Shown piece by piece: positions 7,021 to 21,860 of a stretch of DNA of 64,000 nucleotides. Both the position numbers and the translations under genes were made by a program. Under the pieces are notes generated by a model, which worked only from the letters and a program-made list of their open reading frames with translations, did not search any database and was not told where the DNA came from. The stretch's first letter is position 1. Each line of letters opens with the position of its first letter. Origin of the DNA: Promethearchaeota archaeon (lineage in GTDB: Archaea; Asgardarchaeota; Lokiarchaeia; Sigyniarchaeales; SOKP01); contig SHMW01000011.1 of the NCBI GenBank assembly GCA_008080735.1, forward strand, positions 23,085-87,084, read 5' to 3'.

Positions 7021-9282
7021 TTAATAAGACTTTTTTATCGGGATTGAAATATAGAAAGTAGATCCTTGATTTCTTCCTTGAGACTCCATCCAGATTTTAC
7101 CCCCATGAAGTTCAATTAATTCTTTCGAAATATACAAACCTAATCCCGAACCATTAATTTCTAAGTCTAACCCTTGGCCATAGCGCTCTATTTTTCCGAA
7201 TTGAGTAAATAATAATTTTTTTTCAGCCTCAGTGAATCCAACTCCGGTATCATTTATTGATATTATATAGTAATCATCTTTTTTTTCCGATTTTATGCAA
7301 ATTTCTCCATTTTCAGGAGTATATTTTATTGCATTTGATATCAAATTATTTAAGACTTCATAGATCTTTTCTTTTTCAAAATAAGTTTCAAGTTTATTGT
7401 GTAAATCTAGCTGGATCTTTTGACCCCTCTTCTCTGCTAGGGGTTTTAATTCTTTTATAGTATATTTTATTAAAAAAACCAAATCCTCCTTTTCTTGATT
7501 GAGTTTAATTTTTCCAGATTCTAACTTAGAAGCTTCAATTAATTCTCTAACTAAATCTTCCAATCGTTTAGTTCCCTCCTTTATATTATGAGCAATCTTT
7601 AATATATCGTATGAAAGCTCATCTTGATATACCTCGAGTAAAAAGTCTGCATATCCCTTAATAGAGATTAAAGGAGTCTTAAGTTCATGAGTAATTCTCC
7701 GCAAAAAATCCGATTTAAGCTTATTGACTTTTTCCAACTCTTTTTGAATATTCTTTTTATCGGTTATATCGACAATAGTCACAAAAGAGGCATCTCTACC
7801 TTTATATGTAATATCTTTATAGAAAATATCAATCCATTTTACTTCACCAATGGAGGTGACCCCCCGAAATTCATAATGATTTCTTGCTTTTTTAGGATTG
7901 GTTTTTCTCAGTAGCATTTGTTTTTTAACATATTCTAAATCATCTGGATGGATATATTTTTGAAAATCACTTGCTCTTTTATCCATCAAATCTTTCAGAT
8001 CAAATTCAAATATATCTGCCCATTTTTGATTTACATATTTTATAGTATTATCTTGGACTATTTGAATTCCAGTTGAAGATTGTTCTGCGAGGCTTTTGAA
8101 TAAAATTGCTGTTTCTTCCAAATCTTGTTCCATTAACTTTCTATCTGTGATATCAATTAAAATAATTAGATTGGCTTCTTTTTCATCATAAAGTATTTTC
8201 TTCGTTTGACTTTCAACCCAAAACACCTCCCCTTCATTATTTACTATTCTAAACTCATAGGGTTCAAACTCTTTCGAATCATTCGCCGTTCTTTTAGTGT
8301 ATTGGCCCATTACTTTATCTCTGTCATCAGGATGGATGAATTCGGACAGAGTTCCGATATCAAAATGTTCCACTTGTGTTTCTTTAAGTCCTCCAAATTC
8401 TAATGCTTTTTTATTGATGAACTTTAGCTCTCCATCTTGAACAATTTGGATTCCAAGAGAAGATTGTTCAGCTACTTTTCGAAATTTTTCCTCCGACTCT
8501 TCCAATCGCTTCTTAATATACTTTTTCTCAGTTACATCTATTACCATACCTATATATTTGGAGATCTCTCCATTCTGATTGAAAACTGGAATCGCATGGT
8601 CTAATATATGTCGAGTTTCTCGCGTCTTTTTATGTATAATTCGAAATTCACTATTGTAATTCTCTTTATTTTTAAACGCTTTAAGATAATCATCTACAAA
8701 TCTCCTTCTATCTTCTGGATGCACTATTTTGAACATTAACCTGGGATCATCACAAAATTCTTGAAGTGAATATCCCGTCCATTTTTCAAACTTTTTTGAC
8801 ATAAATTCTATGGTTCCATTCACATCGGTGTAAACAGAATATACAGCGAGAGGGAGGTTTTGAATGAGGCTCCGATATTTTCCTCCGACCTCAAAGAATC
8901 GGTTTTCTAATTCTTTTTCTTTTTTAATGCTTTTGGTAAACATTAAAACGTAATCTTGAGGTAGAAATTCGTAATTGATCTGAAGAAATTCTTCTTTTTC
9001 GATGGTGAGAGGTTTATAGGGTAGTTCTTCTTCAATAGAAATTTTCTTATCAAGGCATCTCTTTAAATTACGTAGAATATGTGGTTTATCTTTAAAAATT
9101 ACAGTGGCTTTCTCTCCTTTAATCTTTTTAATTTTTTGATTAGTCAGCTCGATTGCGGATCTGTTGTAATTAGTTAAAATAAAATCTTCCTGCCATCTTT
9201 TCCAAATAAAGCAAGGTAAAGGGATGGCATTAAATAGAAATCTCATTTTTTCTGGTTTATCGAATAATGAAGATTCATCCAT
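7021..9282 (-). CDS. multi-PAS sensor histidine kinase (cytoplasmic)
   Basis: Three HP(E/D)D PAS/PAC repeats, H-box HELKTPL, N-box NAIKY, G-boxes DTGVG and GSGLGL. Confidence 0.93.
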   Translation of the reverse strand: MDESSLFDKPEKMRFLFNAIPLPCFIWKRWQEDFILTNYNRSAIELTNQKIKKIKGEKATVIFKDKPHILRNLKRCLDKKISIEEELPYKPLTIEKEEFLQINYEFLPQDYVLMFTKSIKKEKELENRFFEVGGKYRSLIQNLPLAVYSVYTDVNGTIEFMSKKFEKWTGYSLQEFCDDPRLMFKIVHPEDRRRFVDDYLKAFKNKENYNSEFRIIHKKTRETRHILDHAIPVFNQNGEISKYIGMVIDVTEKKYIKKRLEESEEKFRKVAEQSSLGIQIVQDGELKFINKKALEFGGLKETQVEHFDIGTLSEFIHPDDRDKVMGQYTKRTANDSKEFEPYEFRIVNNEGEVFWVESQTKKILYDEKEANLIILIDITDRKLMEQDLEETAILFKSLAEQSSTGIQIVQDNTIKYVNQKWADIFEFDLKDLMDKRASDFQKYIHPDDLEYVKKQMLLRKTNPKKARNHYEFRGVTSIGEVKWIDIFYKDITYKGRDASFVTIVDITDKKNIQKELEKVNKLKSDFLRRITHELKTPLISIKGYADFLLEVYQDELSYDILKIAHNIKEGTKRLEDLVRELIEASKLESGKIKLNQEKEDLVFLIKYTIKELKPLAEKRGQKIQLDLHNKLETYFEKEKIYEVLNNLISNAIKYTPENGEICIKSEKKDDYYIISINDTGVGFTEAEKKLLFTQFGKIERYGQGLDLEINGSGLGLYISKELIELHGGKIWMESQGRNQGSTFYISIPIKKSY

Positions 9283-9623
9283 TATAAAACCCCTGATTCC
9301 TTTTATTCTACAAAAATTAAATGTAAATAATCTGCAAAAATAGTACCACTTATTATTTTTATAACCTTTCTTTTAAGAGGATTTAATTACTAATTTAGAG
9401 AATTTTTATAAAATTCTTTTTTTAATGGTTTCATAAATATAGCAAAAAAAATGATTACATTTATAAAGCAAACTGATCACTATCGTAACTTAGATTATTT
9501 ATCTCACTATTATAGATTCAGATATTTTTTTAATCAGCTATCGACTTAATTTATACTTCCAAAGGTTCTCTAGTAGAGATAATTCTGAATGGATAAAGTT
9601 TAGTGAAGAAATTTCATTACCAT

Positions 9624-10273
9624 ATGAATTTTAAAATAATTGATCCTGTTCTTAATTTAGAGCACCCCAGCGTCCAGAACGTATTAAATATTGCACAAGA
9701 TATTTTAGATCAGAATTCCGAAATTCCGAAATAAATGAGATTCTTTTTTCTGGGTTTATAAATGCGGTACAGCATATGAGTAAGGAAGTTATGGATGTAG
9801 GAGGATTATTGGATATAAACATGGAAAAAGGTATAATGATTTTACACCATTCTCGCAATATTACCGTTGGATTAGTAGCTTCAAAATCGTCAAAGTTACT
9901 GAGAGAATCTTTATTAAAATTTTCAATGGATTTTGAAACTAAATTTAAATTTGAATTAAATCAATCAATTAAAGAGATGAATGCTTATAGCGGTGCTTGT
10001 GAGCTAATCGAGAAATATTTTTCAAACTTTCCATATCGAATTTTTACAAACAAGAAACAACCCTTATTACTTTCGGGAAAATTTACTCAGATTCCTAAAG
10101 AATTGGACGAGAGGATAAAAACTACATTTCCTGATGAAAAAGAGTATGAATTCATTAAATCGGAATTACTTAAAGTTCCTCTCTATACTTATTCGGAATT
10201 TGAAAATTTATACAATGAATTACAAGATGAGATGAAAAAAATTCCTAAAAAAGAATTTCACTTTCTGGATTGA
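9624..10273 (+). pseudogene. longin/roadblock-like domain protein, apparently frameshifted near the 5' end (in-frame part 9776-10273)
   Basis: Domain-like sequence EILFSGFINAVQHMSKEV begins upstream of the first in-frame ATG (9776). ATG 9624 joins this frame if one copy of the tandem AATTCCGA (9714-9729) is removed. Confidence 0.5.
9714..9729 (+). repeat. 8-nt tandem duplication AATTCCGA x2
   Basis: Read directly: aattccga aattccga. Confidence 0.9.
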
Positions 10274-10368
10274 GAAACCAATTGATATGATAATCATTTT
10301 TCAGTTTATAAAATACCAAAAATGTATAACTAAAAATCCGAAAATAATAATCAAAAAAAAAAAAATGA

Positions 10369-10818
10369 TTAGATTGGTTTAAAATATTCAATATCCGTGA
10401 TCTTTTTCTGACGTCGATCTTTAAAGACAGCTTCAACTCGCATACCCTTTTTAAATTTCTCATGATCAGATTCATTGATAATATGCACGAATCCTGTATC
10501 GGCACCGTCCAGAACAATGATTGCGTATCCAAAGGGCGGTTTTAAAGGCATAACATCGGTTGAGTGGTTGATAATTGTAAATCCTTCAACGGTTCCTTGC
10601 TTTCCTACTTCCGTCCACTCTTCCATTTTTTCAAAACACTCAAAACATACCATTTTTGGAGGAACATATACCTTTCCGCATTTTGGGCATTTCACACCCA
10701 TGATTTTATCTTCCTTTCCGATAGCTTCCATAAATCTCTCAACATAATCACCCGCTGTATGCTTATAAGGAACCTTAATTCTTCCTCTATATATTTTTTT
10801 CTCCTTTTCTTCACTCAT
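10369..10818 (-). CDS. Zn-ribbon/OB-fold DUF35 (ChsH2-like) thiolase partner
   Basis: CPKCGKVYVPP..CFEC, GTVEGFT and GMRVEAVF motifs. Confidence 0.92.
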   Translation of the reverse strand: MSEEKEKKIYRGRIKVPYKHTAGDYVERFMEAIGKEDKIMGVKCPKCGKVYVPPKMVCFECFEKMEEWTEVGKQGTVEGFTIINHSTDVMPLKPPFGYAIIVLDGADTGFVHIINESDHEKFKKGMRVEAVFKDRRQKKITDIEYFKPI

Positions 10819-10834
10819 TTTTATTTACCTCCTT

Positions 10835-11320
10835 TTATTCCTCCCTGATTATTTCAAAATACGGAATATCTCCTAAGGTCCCTTCCATCTCGTCTTTAAA
10901 GACTGCTTTCACTCTCTGACCGATTTTCATTTTATTATGGTCCTTTTCATTGATAAAATGCATAGTATAAGTATCTGCACCGTCTAATTGAAAAAGTCCA
11001 TATCCATATGGAAATGGTCTCATCCCTCCTGTTTGAGGATCTACAAATGGATAATTTACAACTGTAAAGCCTACTAAAGTACCAGTAGGAGGAACCTCAA
11101 CCATATCATCCGCAGTCATACGAACTACACATTCTGCACATACACCACGTGGAGGAAAATGCATTTTTCCACATTTAGGACATTTACTTCCAAGTAATTT
11201 CCGTTCCTTCTTAAGTGTATCAAAAAATTTTACCGATAATTTTCCTATCGCATATTTATATGGAAGGTCAGTCTTCCATCTTATTTCAAATGGTTTTTCT
11301 TTTTCATTTTTTTTTCCCAT
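10835..11320 (-). CDS. Zn-ribbon/OB-fold DUF35 (ChsH2-like) thiolase partner
   Basis: CPKCGKMHFPPRGVCAEC and IGQRVKAVF motifs. Confidence 0.92.
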   Translation of the reverse strand: MGKKNEKEKPFEIRWKTDLPYKYAIGKLSVKFFDTLKKERKLLGSKCPKCGKMHFPPRGVCAECVVRMTADDMVEVPPTGTLVGFTVVNYPFVDPQTGGMRPFPYGYGLFQLDGADTYTMHFINEKDHNKMKIGQRVKAVFKDEMEGTLGDIPYFEIIREE

Positions 11321-11327
11321 TTTTTAA

Positions 11328-12521
11328 TCACCCCGGTGGTTCATTGCCTAATATAGCTAATTCGGTCCATAATGAGCCTCCAAATCCCATCGCGAGCGCC
11401 TTTTCTGCATCTGGCACTTGTCGCTTTTCTCCCCGATCCATAACTTGTAACGCAGCTTCCGCTATTCGAACCAAAGCAGTTGCACCAATCGGATTAGTAC
11501 TTAAAACTCCTCCTGAAGGATTGACAGGTAATTCGCCGCCCATTTGAGTGATGCCTTCTCTGAGAATTTCACCACCTTTACCAGGTTCAGCAAAACCCAA
11601 AGCTTCGGTCCAAGATAATTCTGCCCAAGACGTTGGTTCATATACTTCTGCCACGTCTAAATCTTTTATTGGATCTTTTATCCCCGCCTTTTTATAAGCT
11701 TTTTTAGAGGCAAATGTGGCTGTGGGTAAATCATACATCTTATCATCGCATCCAAAGGTATAATAATGTGCAGTTGCAACGGAATGGAACCATGCTGGAT
11801 TATCTCGGATCTTTTTAGCTTCACTTTCTTTAGCATAAACCACGGCACATGCGCCCTCGCTTTGAGGACAACAATCGTGGAGTCGTAATGGGTAAGAAAT
11901 CGTTTGAGAACCCATTACATAATCCAAGGTAATATTAGGCATTTGTAAATGCGCAAAAGGATTATTCGCAGCATTACTACGATTTTTCACTGTGACCATT
12001 GCTGCTGTCTCAGGGCTCACATTATATTCATTCATATACATATTCGCCATAAGCGCAAGCGGTCCCAATGCACCTGCAAGGGAAGGGCGCTCCCACACAG
12101 GATCAAAAGCAGTAATGATACCAGTCGTTGCACCGCCTTCATTTAATTTCTCCCAGCCTACCACTAGCACTTTATCGTATATACCCGAGGCTACATTATA
12201 ATATCCACTTATCCCCAAGGAACTCCCCGTTGTACCACCAGTTGCGATTTTCACAACTGGTTTCATAAACCCGGGGGCAGCATCAATTCCACACCACATC
12301 TCTGAGAAGTTAATACCTTCGAAATGATCCATTTGGCATCTAACGTCGATAAGACGTTAAATGTTACCTATTAGAATAGCATCAATGTCTTTAGGCTCCA
12401 ATTGAGCATCATCTAAAGCCATTTTTACTGCTTCATAGACCATTTCGGGGATATTCACATCCCTCCGTTTACTTCTGAACTTGGTTTGTCCGATTCCTAC
12501 TATTCCTACTTTTTCTGGCAT
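11328..12521 (-). CDS. SCP2-thiolase-like / Ltp3-like protein, split gene: exon 1 12521-12363, exon 2 12332-11328; 387 aa after splicing
   Basis: Exon 1 encodes MPEKVGIVGIGQTKF...DIDAILIGN (53 aa, a thiolase N-terminus), with RBS GGAGGTGA and a TAATG overlap with the upstream gene. Exon 2 encodes MDHFEG...VNPSGG. The two are in the same frame, separated by 30 nt containing TAA. Confidence 0.88.
12333..12362 (-). other. putative 30-nt bulge-helix-bulge mRNA intron
   Basis: Intron AUUUAACGUCUUAUCGACGUUAGAUGCCAA. Central helix GGUA/UGCC, 3-nt bulges ACA and AAA, 9-bp intron stem. Removal at the canonical sites deletes the in-frame stop and keeps the frame. Confidence 0.82.
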
Positions 12522-13678
12522 TACTTTTCACCTCCAAAAATTAATACACAATTGCCCTGAGAACAGATTCCATTCATCCCATTTGCAAGTCCGAGATTTG
12601 CATTGGGAACTTGGCGTTTTTCAGCTTTTCCCATCAATTGAAGCGCGATCTCTGCCACGCGAATTAATCCATTTGCCATCGTGGGATTACTTGAAAGAAC
12701 ACCACCCGAAGGATTTACGGGTATGGACCCGTTCATTTCAGTTTCACCGCTATCAATAAAATTGCCTCCTTGACCTTTCTTGCAAAAGCCGAGTGCCTCA
12801 TAACTCATTAATTCATGGGTTGAAAATGCATCATAGACCTCTGCCAAGTCCAATTCTTTCTTAGGATCTGTGATTCCCGCCATTTTATATGCTTCCTTCG
12901 CTGCTCCTTCTAATCCTATCAAATCGCTCATATTTCTATGTCCTAAGTAATATGCATCTGTACAACTTGCATAACCCTTTAACCATACGGGACTATCTGT
13001 TAACTCATTTGCCTTCTCTTCATTTGCTAATAACATTGCAACCGCACCATCAGAAAACGGTGGAAAATCTAATTCTTTCAAGGGAAATGCGACCATCGGA
13101 GAATTCAATACATCCTCTAAGGAGACCGCCTCTTGAAGATGGGCATAAGGATTCGATAAGGCGTTTTTTCGATTTTTCACAACAACCTTTGCCGCCTGCT
13201 CTTCTGTCACTCCATACTTAGTCATATACATATTTGCCATCAGCCCCGCCGCAGAGATTTGGTCAAGACCAAGATGTCTTTGGAAAAACGGGTCGAAAAT
13301 ACTATTATTGATCAGATATTGGTCACCCTCTGAACATTTAGTATGGGACACCACCAAGACGGTATCATATTCTCCGGAAAGCACTCGCATAGCACCATAT
13401 ACATATGCAAAGGCGCCATCTCCCGATACTCTTGATTCTGCCTTTCGTACGGATCCAACAGCATCTTGTATCGCCATATTTGCTATCGTTCGACCATCGT
13501 TGAAATCATTAGAGCTGGAAATGACACATCCAACATCATCATTGGTTATTCCCAATTGATTATGCAACTCTTTTACCACCTCAAATACAAGCTCCGATAT
13601 GGTCAATTCGATCTTTTCCTGCTCATATTTAGATTGTGAAACACCACATATTGCTACGTTTCCTTCCATGACTTTCAC
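12521..13678 (-). CDS. SCP2-thiolase-like / Ltp4-like protein
   Basis: VAICGVSQ, KNRKNA..NPYAH, SDGAVA, EVYDAF and VNPSGG motifs; probable true start is ATG 13669. Confidence 0.9.
   Translation of the reverse strand: MKVMEGNVAICGVSQSKYEQEKIELTISELVFEVVKELHNQLGITNDDVGCVISSSNDFNDGRTIANMAIQDAVGSVRKAESRVSGDGAFAYVYGAMRVLSGEYDTVLVVSHTKCSEGDQYLINNSIFDPFFQRHLGLDQISAAGLMANMYMTKYGVTEEQAAKVVVKNRKNALSNPYAHLQEAVSLEDVLNSPMVAFPLKELDFPPFSDGAVAMLLANEEKANELTDSPVWLKGYASCTDAYYLGHRNMSDLIGLEGAAKEAYKMAGITDPKKELDLAEVYDAFSTHELMSYEALGFCKKGQGGNFIDSGETEMNGSIPVNPSGGVLSSNPTMANGLIRVAEIALQLMGKAEKRQVPNANLGLANGMNGICSQGNCVLIFGGEK
12528..12535 (-). promoter_or_regulatory. Shine-Dalgarno site for exon 1 of the split thiolase
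   Basis: GGAGGTGA on the minus strand, 6 nt before ATG 12521. Confidence 0.7.
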
Positions 13679-13757
13679 TTTTAATATATAATTTAATTTA
13701 TGTAATTTTGTTATTAATTGGAATTTATAGTAAATACTTTAATATGCAACTCAGAAA

Positions 13758-18412: not shown

Positions 18413-18892
18413 TTAGATTTCTTCGAAATAGAGAATATCTTTTATTACCCCCTCTCGTCGTTCTTTTGGTTTTAAAACCGCTTTAACTTTCGCTCCAATA
18501 TGATCTTTATCTGGGTCTGTGGTCTTTATGATTCCTAACATCGCTCCATCTGTTTTTTCTATATCGATGAGAGCCACCATTTTTGGAGTTTTCATCTTTT
18601 TACCATGTGCGTTAATCGTTGCAGTTGTGAATAATCGTATAGTCCCTTGTGCGGGAACTTCAGTCCAATTTTCATCTGGAATTTCCACGAAACAATCTTC
18701 GCAATAAAGTCGAGGTGGGAAAAAGATTTTCTCACATTTTGGACATATGGTGGCAAGAAATGAATCATTTCCTTTCAAATGCTTAAAGAATTTATCACCC
18801 GCAACACCACTAGGATAAAGATAATCTGCTTGCATGTTTCCTCTCCAATGCGTTGGAGCCGTTGGATCGGTCTGTTTTTCTGTGAAAGTCAT
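18413..18892 (-). CDS. Zn-ribbon/OB-fold DUF35 protein
   Basis: CPKCEKIFFPPRLYCEDC, IGAKVKAV and REG..KDI motifs. Confidence 0.9.
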   Translation of the reverse strand: MTFTEKQTDPTAPTHWRGNMQADYLYPSGVAGDKFFKHLKGNDSFLATICPKCEKIFFPPRLYCEDCFVEIPDENWTEVPAQGTIRLFTTATINAHGKKMKTPKMVALIDIEKTDGAMLGIIKTTDPDKDHIGAKVKAVLKPKERREGVIKDILYFEEI

Positions 18893-18894
18893 TA

Positions 18895-19434
18895 CTATTC
18901 ACCTCCTCTTAACGGTTTGAAATATTTGATATCTGTTATTGAACCTTCTCGCTCCTCTTCTGGCTTCCAAACTGCTTTAACTTTCATGCCGATATGAATC
19001 TCATCTTTAGACATCTCTCCGAAATAATGCATAAAACCCATCGGATCAGGACGAGCACCATCTATTGAAATTACACCGATAAGGATTGGGTCCTCAATAC
19101 GATTCGCGTTCGGGTCTAAGTATGAGATTGAATAGGTATTAATCGTTCCCGTATCCTTTAATTCAACCCAACCTTCAGTTGGTCCATAACAATATTCACA
19201 GAAGCTTCTGGGTGGGGTAATAACTCTATCACATTTATGACAATTGACCCCCAAGATTTTTCCTTCTTTAAGCCCTTGTAGGAATTTTGAATACGCAGGT
19301 CCTAAACTCCAACTATATTGGATTTCGGGTTCCCACCATGTATAAGTGATATTTTTTTGGTAAATATCCTTTGTACCTACATGTGTTCCAGGAGCATATG
19401 GAGGACTACTTTTATTATCTTCTTTTTTTTCCAT
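18895..19434 (-). CDS. Zn-ribbon/OB-fold DUF35 protein
   Basis: CHKCDRVITPPRSFCEYC and IGMKVKAVWK..REGSITDI motifs; start corrected to ATG 19434 (RBS GAGGTGA), since the longer ORF overlaps the upstream gene. Confidence 0.9.
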   Translation of the reverse strand: MEKKEDNKSSPPYAPGTHVGTKDIYQKNITYTWWEPEIQYSWSLGPAYSKFLQGLKEGKILGVNCHKCDRVITPPRSFCEYCYGPTEGWVELKDTGTINTYSISYLDPNANRIEDPILIGVISIDGARPDPMGFMHYFGEMSKDEIHIGMKVKAVWKPEEEREGSITDIKYFKPLRGGE

Positions 19435-19439
19435 TTTTT

Positions 19440-20603
19440 TCACCTCTTTAATACCATAACGGTTGCCATTTGCATTATATCTCCCCAAGCTTGACCAACT
19501 CCGATTCTTGGGTCTCCAGGGATTTGTCTTTTTCCTGCTTTCCCAGCTAATTGCCAATATAACTCGCAAACCTTTTGTCCCATGGTTGCTGCGATCGGAT
19601 TCCCTACACCAAGTAAACCACCTGAAGGACAAATAGGTAAATCTCCATCTCTCTGGGTTACCCCTTCTCGCGTGAGGATTGGGGCTTCTCCTTTATCACA
19701 GAGCAGAAGTCCTTCCATATGATGAAGTTCTTTATAATCAAACGGATCATATGGCTCAGCAAAATCGATTTCGCGACGAGGGTTAACAATTCCCGCCATT
19801 TTATATGCCATTTTCGCAGCGAGGGAAACATAACGAGGAAAATATAGATCACGATTAGTCCACATGGTACTATCTATATTATATCCCACTCCTTCTACCC
19901 AGATGGGGTCATCAGTATATTGGTTCACGACATCTTCAGAGCAAAATATTAAAGCTGCTGCCCCGTCACTCGGGGGACTGATATCTAATCTTTGAACGGG
20001 CCATGCCATCATTTCAGAATTTAACACGTCATCGACGGTTATATTTGGATCTGCCAATTGCGCGCAAGGATGACCTACAGCATTTCGCTTATTCTTTACG
20101 GCTACTCGAGCAATATCTTCTTTCTTGATATTATGCACGGTCATATATCGATTCATCTCCATCGCGAAAAGCCATACTAAATTTGGATTAAGTGGTCTGT
20201 CAATGACGGGATCCCATATATGTCTAAATGCAGTTTGAGGGTGCGGATAACACGAACCCATTTTTTCCTCAGCTATCACCATACATATATCTGCAACACC
20301 GGAAGCTACATGCCACCATCCAGCAATAGGGGCAAATACTCCAGTCCCTCCACCGTTGAACACTCTTACATAAGGCTTTCCTGCCCCTCCAGCACCATCA
20401 AGTAAATTTTCACCTTTCATGTGGATACCGTCAAAAGCATCTGGAGCACTTCCCATTACTATCATATCGATATTTTTCTTTTCAATGCCTGCTTCTTCCA
20501 TTGCCATTTTTGCTGCTAAAAAGGATAATTCTTTTCCCGTCTCTTTTAATCGTCTTCGAAAGAGTGTCATTCCCGCTCCAATTACAGCTACATCTTTTTT
20601 CAT
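19440..20603 (-). CDS. SCP2-thiolase-like / Ltp3-like protein (387 aa)
   Basis: VAVIGAGMT, GSAPDAFDG, KNKRNA, SDGAAA and PSGGLL motifs. Confidence 0.92.
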   Translation of the reverse strand: MKKDVAVIGAGMTLFRRRLKETGKELSFLAAKMAMEEAGIEKKNIDMIVMGSAPDAFDGIHMKGENLLDGAGGAGKPYVRVFNGGGTGVFAPIAGWWHVASGVADICMVIAEEKMGSCYPHPQTAFRHIWDPVIDRPLNPNLVWLFAMEMNRYMTVHNIKKEDIARVAVKNKRNAVGHPCAQLADPNITVDDVLNSEMMAWPVQRLDISPPSDGAAALIFCSEDVVNQYTDDPIWVEGVGYNIDSTMWTNRDLYFPRYVSLAAKMAYKMAGIVNPRREIDFAEPYDPFDYKELHHMEGLLLCDKGEAPILTREGVTQRDGDLPICPSGGLLGVGNPIAATMGQKVCELYWQLAGKAGKRQIPGDPRIGVGQAWGDIMQMATVMVLKR

Positions 20604-20618
20604 TTATTTTTTCACCTC

Positions 20619-21860
20619 TTAACCTCTTGTAAATATTGCCACTGCTCCACTTCCTGAGGGAATACCTCGCCAAGACTGAGCAAGTCCAATCTCTACATCA
20701 TTTATTTGTCTTCTTCCGGCTAGTCCTTTAAGTTGTAATACAATTTCAAGCGATTTTTGAAGTCCCGTTGCCTCTAAACAGTTACCTATACCTAAGGATC
20801 CTCCCGATGGATTTATTGGAAGAGAACCTTGAATTTCCAGAGCGCCTTCATCAAGTAATTCTTTCGCCTCTCCTTTTCTAGCTAAGCCCAATGCTTCAAG
20901 ATGCTGTAATTCTTTATAAGTGAATCGATCATCGATCTCCGCCACTTGGATTTCTTTTCGAGGATCTACTATTCCCGCCATTTTATAAGCCATCTGAGAG
21001 GCATCTTTTGCATACTGCGCTTCCATCCCTCTTGTAGCCAGCCAAGGAGTTTCTGAACTCCAACCGAATCCAGAAAGATAAATAGGTTCAACTCCCAATT
21101 CTCGGGCGAATTCTTCGTTCGCTAGCACAAAACAAATAGCACCATCCACATTTGGACTGATATCTAATCGTTTAAGTGGTTTAAAACAGTATTCAGATTT
21201 CATTACATCGTCCACACTTATCTTTGCCTCATAATCAGCATAGGGAGTAAAATATGCATTCTTTTTATTCTTCACCGCTACTTTAGCACATTGTTCTTCA
21301 GTAGTATCAGTATTTCTTAAATAATGTTGCATTTCTAATCCCGCTAAGAAATACGGATGCATACGTTCCTCCTCATCAGTGCTTCCAACGAGAGGTTTCG
21401 GACTCTCTTCGCTATAAGAGGGCGAACCAGCATAATTTGGACGTTCTACAGGCCCGCTCACGGGACGATCATATAGAGGGTCAAATGCATGGAGCATTAC
21501 ATCTCCATAAGTGAGTAAATCTGATACTTTACTGTGTGCTTCGATTGAAACGACATTCATTAAACCTGTTTGTATTTGCATATAGGCATTTCCTAATCCA
21601 TAAATTCCATCGCCACAAACAGTGCAGCAAGGTCGCAAAAGAGCCCCGATCTGATCAGGGACAAATTCATCAAAGATACTAAATCCTTCCCAGTAATCCT
21701 CGGCACATGTTATAAAGCTGTCAATATCTCTTCTAGGATCAATTCCCGCATCCACATATGCCTTATTACATGCCTCATACATAATATCTTTCCAACTCAT
21801 CCCCGGTGTCATACTATTAAAGTCAGTATGACCAATTCCAATTACACATACTCGTGTCAT
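20619..21860 (-). CDS. SCP2-thiolase-like / Ltp4-like protein with an internal ~31-aa insertion
   Basis: VCVIGIGHT, KNKKNA, VDGAIC and INPSGGSL motifs; 413 aa versus about 385 aa for the paralogues. Confidence 0.9.
   Translation of the reverse strand: MTRVCVIGIGHTDFNSMTPGMSWKDIMYEACNKAYVDAGIDPRRDIDSFITCAEDYWEGFSIFDEFVPDQIGALLRPCCTVCGDGIYGLGNAYMQIQTGLMNVVSIEAHSKVSDLLTYGDVMLHAFDPLYDRPVSGPVERPNYAGSPSYSEESPKPLVGSTDEEERMHPYFLAGLEMQHYLRNTDTTEEQCAKVAVKNKKNAYFTPYADYEAKISVDDVMKSEYCFKPLKRLDISPNVDGAICFVLANEEFARELGVEPIYLSGFGWSSETPWLATRGMEAQYAKDASQMAYKMAGIVDPRKEIQVAEIDDRFTYKELQHLEALGLARKGEAKELLDEGALEIQGSLPINPSGGSLGIGNCLEATGLQKSLEIVLQLKGLAGRRQINDVEIGLAQSWRGIPSGSGAVAIFTRG

Follow-up and report, generated by a model that had tools for sequence, protein, structure and literature searches.

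How might a gene that is interrupted in frame by 30 nucleotides (nt) carrying a stop codon still yield an intact protein? This question is raised by a thiolase-fold gene on the minus strand of a 64,000-nt stretch of DNA (hereafter the window) from Promethearchaeota archaeon (assembly GCA_008080735.1, contig SHMW01000011.1, positions 23,085 to 87,084 of the forward strand). The assembly, labeled G000 here, comprises 4.15 Mb with 33.6% GC and is 93% complete. We propose that the 30 nt at positions 12333-12362 of the window are very probably a mini-intron of the bulge-helix-bulge (BHB) type, recognized by the archaeal splicing endonuclease and lying inside the thiolase-fold coding sequence. This is the reading that the original prediction had offered, and it is supported by the geometry of the insert, its exact match to intron-less orthologues, covariation within it, selection on the two exons and the enzymes encoded in the genome, from which we infer the cutting and joining themselves.

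The insert has the geometry of an endonuclease substrate

In the minus-strand RNA, the insert and its flanks read GGUA-ACA-UUUAACGUC-UUAUC-GACGUUAGA-UGCC-AAA. Of these elements, the insert itself takes in a single base of the 5' bulge, the 9-bp stem with its 5-nt loop, the UGCC strand of the central helix and two of the three bases of the 3' bulge. The positions originally given for the helix, bulges, stem, loop and stop codon all proved correct upon reading of the minus strand (Table 1). By the published rule (PMC2738675), the splicing endonuclease severs each bulge after its second residue, ahead of the third. Cutting after the second base of each bulge removes positions 12333-12362, exactly 30 nt including the in-frame TAA, and is predicted to join GGU AAC to AUG GAU (...IGN with MDHFEG...), as had been claimed; exon 2 opens with the third A of the 3' bulge. 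Removal of positions 12332-12361 gives the same product, because the insert and exon 2 both begin with A.

The consequences for the protein are simple. Without splicing, translation would read ...DAILIGN followed by Ile and a stop, and the same frame resumes at the ATG at 12332. Exons 1 and 2 share this frame, and the joined product is 387 amino acids (aa), which equals, as noted originally, the length of a paralogue at positions 19440-20603 in the window. In a profile search, the thiolase N- and C-terminal domains would be contiguous in one joined polypeptide, as in the thiolase superfamily (SCP-x, PRK08313-like), while the scores of the separate pieces fall below the curated cut-offs; since exon 1 corresponds to the Thiolase_N profile up to position 53 and exon 2 picks up the PRK08313 profile at position 57, the pieces abut in the family profile. 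Exon 1 is intact at its start, in agreement with the earlier description: its ATG (12521) overlaps the TAA of the upstream paralogue (TAATG), and the ribosome-binding site GGAGGTGA lies 5' of the ATG.

We envisage the following pathway. The pre-mRNA would fold such that the exonic GGUA pairs with the intronic UGCC, placing the ACA bulge between the central helix and the 9-bp intron hairpin, with the AAA stretch directly 3' of the helix. Cleavage would bring together the exon ends ...ATAGGTAAC and ATGGATCAT..., with exactly 12333-12362 gone, and RtcB would ligate ...GGU AAC to AUG GAU..., allowing synthesis of the 387-aa protein. The 30-nt intron, with the only in-frame stop, would be released, probably as a circle whose back-junction would read ...UGCCAA followed by AUUUAAC.... 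The predicted junction in the spliced RNA is ...AUAGGUAAC followed directly by AUGGAUCAU..., and the predicted junction peptide is DAILIGNMDHFEG.

The agreement between this structure and the gene is not due to chance, given that the strict motif with L=30 at fixed register occurs at 4e-5 per position and strand in the organism's own genome, and that the predicted cut sites coincide with the indel boundaries set independently by the alignment of orthologues. The minimum-free-energy fold of the single sequence (-17.2 kcal/mol, z = -2.1) prefers an 11-bp stem that uses two of the bulge bases; RNAalifold, applied to the ten aligned intron-bearing sequences described below, yielded exactly the 4-bp helix, 3-nt bulge and 9-bp stem, and the 11-bp alternative was not predicted.

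The description of this motif as a canonical BHB stands only in part. The 4-bp central helix, the two 3-nt bulges and the 9-bp stem are all present, but the outer helix formed by the exons is short and poorly conserved. We found that h' corresponds to the 9-bp stem (97.8% paired), whereas the outer h has only 2 bp, and from its sequence the motif is a relaxed HBh' rather than a strict hBHBh'. The relaxed HBh' is a recognized non-canonical form (PMC5829648).

Orthologues encode the predicted junction, and the insert covaries

We searched the exon-2 protein against 135 genomes of the same family, in which the named relatives are metagenome-assembled genomes of Promethearchaeota/Promethearchaeia (Lokiarchaeia-type Asgard archaea), and fetched the corresponding loci. 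Fifty-one full-length orthologues (79-96% amino-acid identity) were readable across the site; ten have a 30-nt insert at the exact point, while the other 41 read GGN AAY/ATG GAY CAY without a gap. Two truncated copies are also intron-less, giving 43 intron-less genes in total, and an eleventh carrier emerged from a pattern scan, such that the 11 carriers represent seven genera. Thus, the junction produced by the cut rule is the very sequence encoded by 43 intron-less orthologues, as the original prediction had expected of them, and we conclude that the mature junction would be as predicted. The pattern scan returned one match per carrier genome, always at the thiolase site (reversed control, 0), and the sequence family of this intron was absent elsewhere in the organism's own genome and in the 135 relatives. 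We had considered a dispersed palindromic repeat, but the presence of one copy per genome, only at the thiolase site, excludes this.

The paired elements have been maintained while their sequences changed. In the alignment of ten carriers, 95.3% of the cells in paired columns are standard pairs, compared to 33-41% for controls in which the 3' partners were displaced by 1-3 columns, and four pairs have changed on both sides, three in the stem and one in the central helix; this is the stem compensation that had been anticipated. The stem pairs that are C-G or G-C in G000 are U-A, A-U or U.G elsewhere, and the third pair of the central helix varies among U-A, U.G and C-G. None of 500 shuffles reached the observed covariation score. 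The central helix, which in G000 lies between ACA and AAA, is retained in 97.5% of cells across the ten carriers. Moreover, the Gly codon whose wobble base belongs to the central helix is GGY in all ten carriers, but in only 14 of 41 non-carriers, with phylogenetically independent pairs supporting the change about 7:0 (median p about 0.016).

All 11 inserts are 30 nt long without an open reading frame (ORF), and all have an in-frame stop at insert codon 2 (TAA in nine, TGA in two). Since every insert keeps its stop, the inserts are not translatable through. Within the carriers, exon 1 has a ratio of nonsynonymous to synonymous substitutions (dN/dS) of 0.037 and exon 2 one of 0.048, ratios that are approximate because dS is near 2 and thus saturated; we take these values to mean that, at the level of sequence, both exons are under strong purifying selection in carriers. 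The mean identity among inserts is 0.80, compared to 0.46 at third codon positions of the host gene, and is higher in 45 of 45 pairs; as judged from these identities, the inserts are clearly homologous across carriers.

These comparisons bear directly on the simplest alternative, that the 30 nt are an inactivating insertion in a pseudogene or an artifact of assembly or sequencing. An in-frame stop in a gene with paralogues in the same window is what such an accident might look like. The same insert is found, however, in 11 independently assembled genomes from seven genera, as well as in metagenome protein clusters starting with MDHFEG; dN/dS is about 0.04 in both carrier exons (at saturated dS); and the insert is more conserved than synonymous sites (0.80 versus 0.46, 45/45 pairs). 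We consider this alternative scarcely credible.

The genome encodes the splicing machinery and has many tRNA genes with predicted introns

Since splicing of a relaxed motif depends upon the type of endonuclease, with either (alpha-beta)2 or epsilon2 enzymes able to cut such motifs, we examined the enzymes encoded in G000. We found two EndA paralogues (200 and 205 aa; C72:1001-1603 and, on C37, locus L002:1432-2049), both above the TIGR00324 cut-off. When aligned with the fused alpha'2 form, one corresponds to its catalytic C-terminal repeat and the other to its N-terminal repeat. We read this pair as a putative (alpha-beta)2 enzyme, with subunit roles and the Tyr/His/Lys residues assigned from sequence. 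A broad-specificity (alpha-beta)2 EndA with an L1 loop, which cuts relaxed motifs, has been reported in Asgard archaea (PMC5829648). There are also two full-length genes for RtcB, the 3'-phosphate RNA ligase (C10:27830-29137 and C1:51843-53150, loci L033 and L034; 570 and 556 bits).

The tRNA genes indicate a heavy load of introns. ARAGORN detected 26 tRNA genes in the genome, and 16 of the 26 have predicted introns, several at non-canonical positions. Reports on Asgard archaea describe tRNA genes that are heavily interrupted and in part escape detection, which fits with the detection of only 26 here.

Inserts of the same build interrupt other genes

Seven other genes of G000 have inserts that share this build, with a 4-bp helix, a bulge of 3 nt whose first base is A, a 9-10-bp stem and a 4-5-nt U-rich loop, and with lengths of 29-32 nt (Table 1). 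Four of the genes, those for aIF2-gamma, DnaG, RNase HII and AMP phosphorylase, are single-copy in the assembly. Several of these inserts shift the frame and are not followed by a start codon. Thus, the cell needs to remove them at the RNA level, which in turn weakens any explanation of the thiolase gene in which the insert is retained.

We also considered that the ribosome might skip the 30 nt during translation, by bypassing (hopping) of the kind known from gene 60 of phage T4 and from the "byp" elements of yeast mitochondria. The insert resembles such elements in that it is short, has a stop right after the region from which a ribosome would take off and forms a stable hairpin. Bypassing seems highly improbable, however: the codons for take-off and landing are not matched (AAY precedes the insert, while CAA or TAA precedes the ATG), the geometry matches the endonuclease rule to the base, and the shared tRNA-splicing machinery is indicated by the rich load of tRNA introns and the occurrence of similarly built inserts in many unrelated genes.

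Some candidates were rejected upon inspection. At an apparent HdrA-MvhD "fusion" (C42:6465-6532), two genes simply adjoin in the ordinary way, a ribosome-binding site and an ATG being present. A 22-nt candidate before the DKTGT motif of a P-type ATPase folds only weakly, and the frame upstream of it is junk. In another genome (G017), a TAA in the upstream paralogue (L007:412-1266) is an in-frame substitution with length unchanged and not an intron. In that paralogue, HLHK-stop-VSLDE is found where G000 has HLQEAVSLED; this may reflect a substitution to a nonsense codon, an error in sequencing or possibly recoding.

Splicing accounts for the evidence better than a split gene

A second alternative retains the insert: a 54-aa peptide (...GNI) and a 334-aa protein initiated at the ATG of exon 2 might be made separately and assemble into the thiolase fold. 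In agreement with this idea, all orthologues have ATG as the first codon of exon 2, purifying selection on both pieces is likewise predicted, and public annotation already lists ORFs of 54 and 334 aa. However, the ATG is present equally in the 43 intron-less genes and thus did not evolve as a start codon, and no Shine-Dalgarno-like GGAGG or GGTGA word was seen in the insert, while exon 1 has GGAGGTGA. Moreover, a split gene leaves unexplained the BHB geometry, the compensatory changes and the covarying wobble base in the exon, and splicing would be needed anyway for other G000 inserts that shift the frame in P-loop or catalytic motifs without a later start codon. We therefore regard a split gene as improbable.

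Several observations do weigh against splicing of the thiolase message. First, the ATG at the start of exon 2 makes separate translation of the two pieces compatible with the sequence of the gene. Second, the outer helix formed by the exons comprises just 2 bp (A-U, U.G), its A-U pair is missing in four of ten carriers, and RNAalifold did not predict it; judging from the sequence, the 3' cut site is therefore in a relaxed context and would depend upon the putative activity of a broad-specificity enzyme. Third, a 38-nt genome-specific word spanning the spliced junction had no match in metagenome contigs. Fourth, a census of the genome that combined the motif with fusion of ORFs was not enriched over position-shifted controls in any of three versions: strict hBHBh' motifs of 14-150 nt (622 compared to ~594 in controls), relaxed motifs of 22-45 nt (2572 compared to ~2610), and a fixed helix-bulge-stem-loop architecture (295 compared to ~281). 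Filters for coding potential and ribosome-binding sites left 80 census matches, only six of which were recognizable as real by conserved junction motifs, and the inserts in the genes for RNase HII and DnaG were missed by the census scans. Thus, no genome-wide intron count is given, and the number of such introns rests on motif-by-motif inspection rather than on statistics.

The predicted intron is scattered among relatives, with flanks suggestive of recombination

To place the carriers, we used a maximum likelihood tree of spliced coding sequences that included ten of them. The ten carriers require ten changes on this tree, with no clustering and a number equal to that for shuffled labels, and the nearest relative of every carrier is intron-less.

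Comparisons among close alleles revealed a pattern around the site. The carriers G113 and G063 belong to different genera and have identical inserts. Between G113 and its intron-less sister G122, 19 of 1152 sites differ; six of these differences fall in the 28 nt upstream of the insert (P = 4e-6), and the interval from -31 to +176 holds ten of the 19 (P = 7e-4). G113 is identical to G063 at eight of these ten, and the first ~440 nt of the G063 gene are G113-like. Furthermore, the closest intron-less allele from a public metagenome (L134, JGI 3300037504, compared with window positions 8001-13700) is 94.6% identical downstream of the site and 87.2% identical upstream, and this step in identity at the insert site looks like a recombination breakpoint in the alignment. 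We read these sequence patterns as those of a single-site element, polymorphic across the family, whose gain or loss may come about when alleles recombine and the flanks are co-converted. The pattern fits transfer by recombination, and implies neither a direction nor an active homing mechanism.

Among metagenome sequences, we had considered a 387-aa protein (P0125), 98% identical to exon 2, as the product of a spliced transcript. Its contig has convergent neighbor genes and is 87-95% identical to the window, and we read it as probably DNA of a related intron-less strain.

Features of the locus

The coordinates of the locus and of the related inserts in G000 are collected in Table 1. The interrupted gene belongs to a cassette of four genes (10369-13678), two thiolase-fold and two DUF35, and the window has a second cassette of two thiolase-fold and two DUF35 genes at about 18413-21860. 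Exon 2 contains the motif KIATGGTTGSS, without Cys.

Table 1. Positions of the interrupted gene, its predicted intron and neighbors in the window, and of similar inserts elsewhere in G000 (contig:positions, locus).
Feature	Position	Strand	Remarks
Thiolase-fold gene	11328-12521	-	Interrupted in frame by 30 nt with TAA
Exon 1	12363-12521	-	53 codons, MPEKVGIV...DAILIGN; Pfam Thiolase_N positions 1-53
Exon 2	11328-12332	-	334 codons + stop, MDHFEGINF...; Pfam Thiolase_C_1; NCBIfam PRK08313 positions 57-387 of 389
Predicted BHB-type (relaxed HBh') mini-intron, 30 nt	12333-12362	-	Absent exactly from 43 orthologues, present in 11
Central helix, 5' strand GGUA	12365-12368	-	Exonic; includes Gly-codon wobble base
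Central helix, 3' strand UGCC	12335-12338	-	Intronic; four pairs, GGUA 12368-12365 with UGCC 12338-12335 (G-C, G-C, U.G, A-U)
5' bulge ACA	12364-12362	-	
3' bulge AAA	12334-12332	-	
Intron hairpin	12339-12361	-	9-bp stem, UUUAACGUC (12361-12353) with GACGUUAGA (12347-12339), including one U.G; UUAUC loop 12352-12348
In-frame stop TAA inside insert	12359-12357	-	
Upstream paralogous thiolase-fold gene	12521-13678	-	Same operon; 385 aa, uninterrupted
Two downstream DUF35/ChsH2-type zinc-ribbon + OB-fold genes	10835-11320 and 10369-10818	-	Same operon
aIF2-gamma insert, 29 nt	C123:290-318 (L139)		GHVDHG/K/TS; frame shifted, no start codon after
DnaG insert, 32 nt	C77:17330-17361 (L141)		GAIFGQ/TEGL
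RNase HII insert, 30 nt	C1:84833-84862 (L140)		GIDEAG/R/GPVLGPL
AMP phosphorylase insert, 30 nt	C49:14366-14395 (L137)		DKHS/T/GGVPGNK
ABC ATPase insert, 32 nt	C4:57717-57748 (L136)		LDEPT/T/GVD
PorB-like thiamine pyrophosphate enzyme insert, 30 nt	C59:6281-6310 (L138)		NTG/I/QESGGTP
Unnamed protein insert, 30 nt	C18:6895-6924 (L142)		

Implications

We think it probable that the thiolase insert belongs to a class of 29-32-nt, protein-spliced mini-introns found in many protein genes of Promethearchaeota, including the essential single-copy genes for aIF2-gamma, DnaG and RNase HII, and existing as mobile or quickly lost alleles that recombination would carry from lineage to lineage along with adjoining exon sequence. 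If so, gene expression in the archaea most closely related to eukaryotes would routinely involve mRNA splicing by the enzymes of tRNA splicing. With essential genes interrupted alongside it, an intron in a metabolic gene suggests that messages are routinely spliced in the lineage nearest eukaryotes, and these genes provide a concrete set of substrates on which message splicing can be tested. The two RtcB paralogues raise the possibility that one has specialized for mRNA as opposed to tRNA substrates. Moreover, with 11 genomes that carry the insert, 43 that lack it and close sister pairs among them, the gene is a natural experiment on the gain, loss and movement of a protein-spliced intron.

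There is also a practical consequence. Intron-bearing alleles are recorded in GenBank (MFO7795492.1/MFO7795491.1 and relatives) as two entries, a hypothetical protein of 54 aa and a "thiolase C-terminal domain-containing protein" of 334 aa, one protein cluster at 90% identity mixes the 387-aa and 54+334-aa forms, and at least seven further metagenome protein clusters start at MDHFEG. Since public records split the thiolase gene in this manner, gene callers that are blind to such introns under-call and mis-call Asgard proteomes.

Comparison with known systems

Protein-catalyzed, non-spliceosomal removal of a short mRNA intron is also known from HAC1/XBP1, for which ligation in metazoa is of the RtcB type. 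Unlike the pathway proposed for the thiolase intron, HAC1/XBP1 processing uses the Ire1 nuclease acting on two 7-nt loops. It is regulated by stress, and the relationship is one of analogy only.

Short palindromic inserts that do not destroy the gene are exemplified by the Rickettsia palindromic elements, hairpin repeats that lie in frame within genes, are present in multiple copies, lack stop codons and are translated. The thiolase insert is likewise a short palindrome in a coding sequence, but it is single-copy in each genome and always has a stop. Mobile BHB introns in archaeal rRNA genes (such as the Desulfurococcus 23S intron) encode LAGLIDADG homing endonucleases; the thiolase intron shares with these introns a patchy distribution, and may share horizontal spread with co-conversion of flanks, but its 30 nt encode nothing. 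Thus, with no encoded endonuclease, any spread would occur via general recombination or a trans-acting factor.

Further relationships are with introns removed by the tRNA-splicing endonuclease. The BHB introns of archaeal and Asgard tRNAs (PMC11291895; bioRxiv 10.64898/2026.10.13.758758) resemble the thiolase intron in the recognition motif, in the presumed use of EndA and RtcB and in the high intron load of the lineage; unlike these, the thiolase intron resides in an mRNA, with exons that carry a reading frame. These two papers on Asgard tRNA introns say nothing about introns within protein-coding genes; the preprint contains neither "mRNA" nor "cbf5," and only tRNA introns turned up in the other paper. 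An mRNA is also cut by the splicing endonuclease in Haloferax volcanii, where the BHB intron in the HVO_1309 5' untranslated region (UTR) was verified in vitro (PMC7714728). That intron is in an untranslated leader in a host with a homodimeric enzyme, whereas the thiolase intron is in coding sequence.

In searchable papers, we found no mRNA introns of Asgard archaea, Lokiarchaeia or Promethearchaeota. In that literature, cbf5 is the only coding-sequence case and the Haloferax 5' UTR the only other mRNA case (PMC7714728, PMC2738675), which bears out the guess in the original prediction that an intron in a gene such as this one would be notable.

A further comparison is with the BHB intron in the cbf5 pre-mRNA of Crenarchaeota, for which splicing was confirmed by cDNA (Watanabe 2002; Yoshinari 2006; Yokobori 2009, PMC2738675). 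Like the cbf5 intron, the thiolase intron lies in an archaeal coding sequence, has a mostly relaxed BHB with cuts predicted between the second and third bulge bases, occurs in a host whose predicted endonuclease is hetero-oligomeric, (alpha-beta)2, and is present in some lineages and absent from others. The two differ in several respects. The thiolase intron is in a thiolase-fold metabolic gene in the phylum Promethearchaeota/Asgard, and not at the catalytic-Asp codon of cbf5; it is a uniform 30 nt (4-bp helix, 3-nt bulge, 9-bp stem, 5-nt loop); and it is scattered over the gene tree with apparent recombination tracts, whereas the cbf5 intron reflects one ancestral gain with few losses. Furthermore, splicing of cbf5 was seen in cDNA, while the thiolase intron is known here from genomic sequence. 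Thus, the thiolase intron is of the same mechanism class as the cbf5 intron, but is a different intron.

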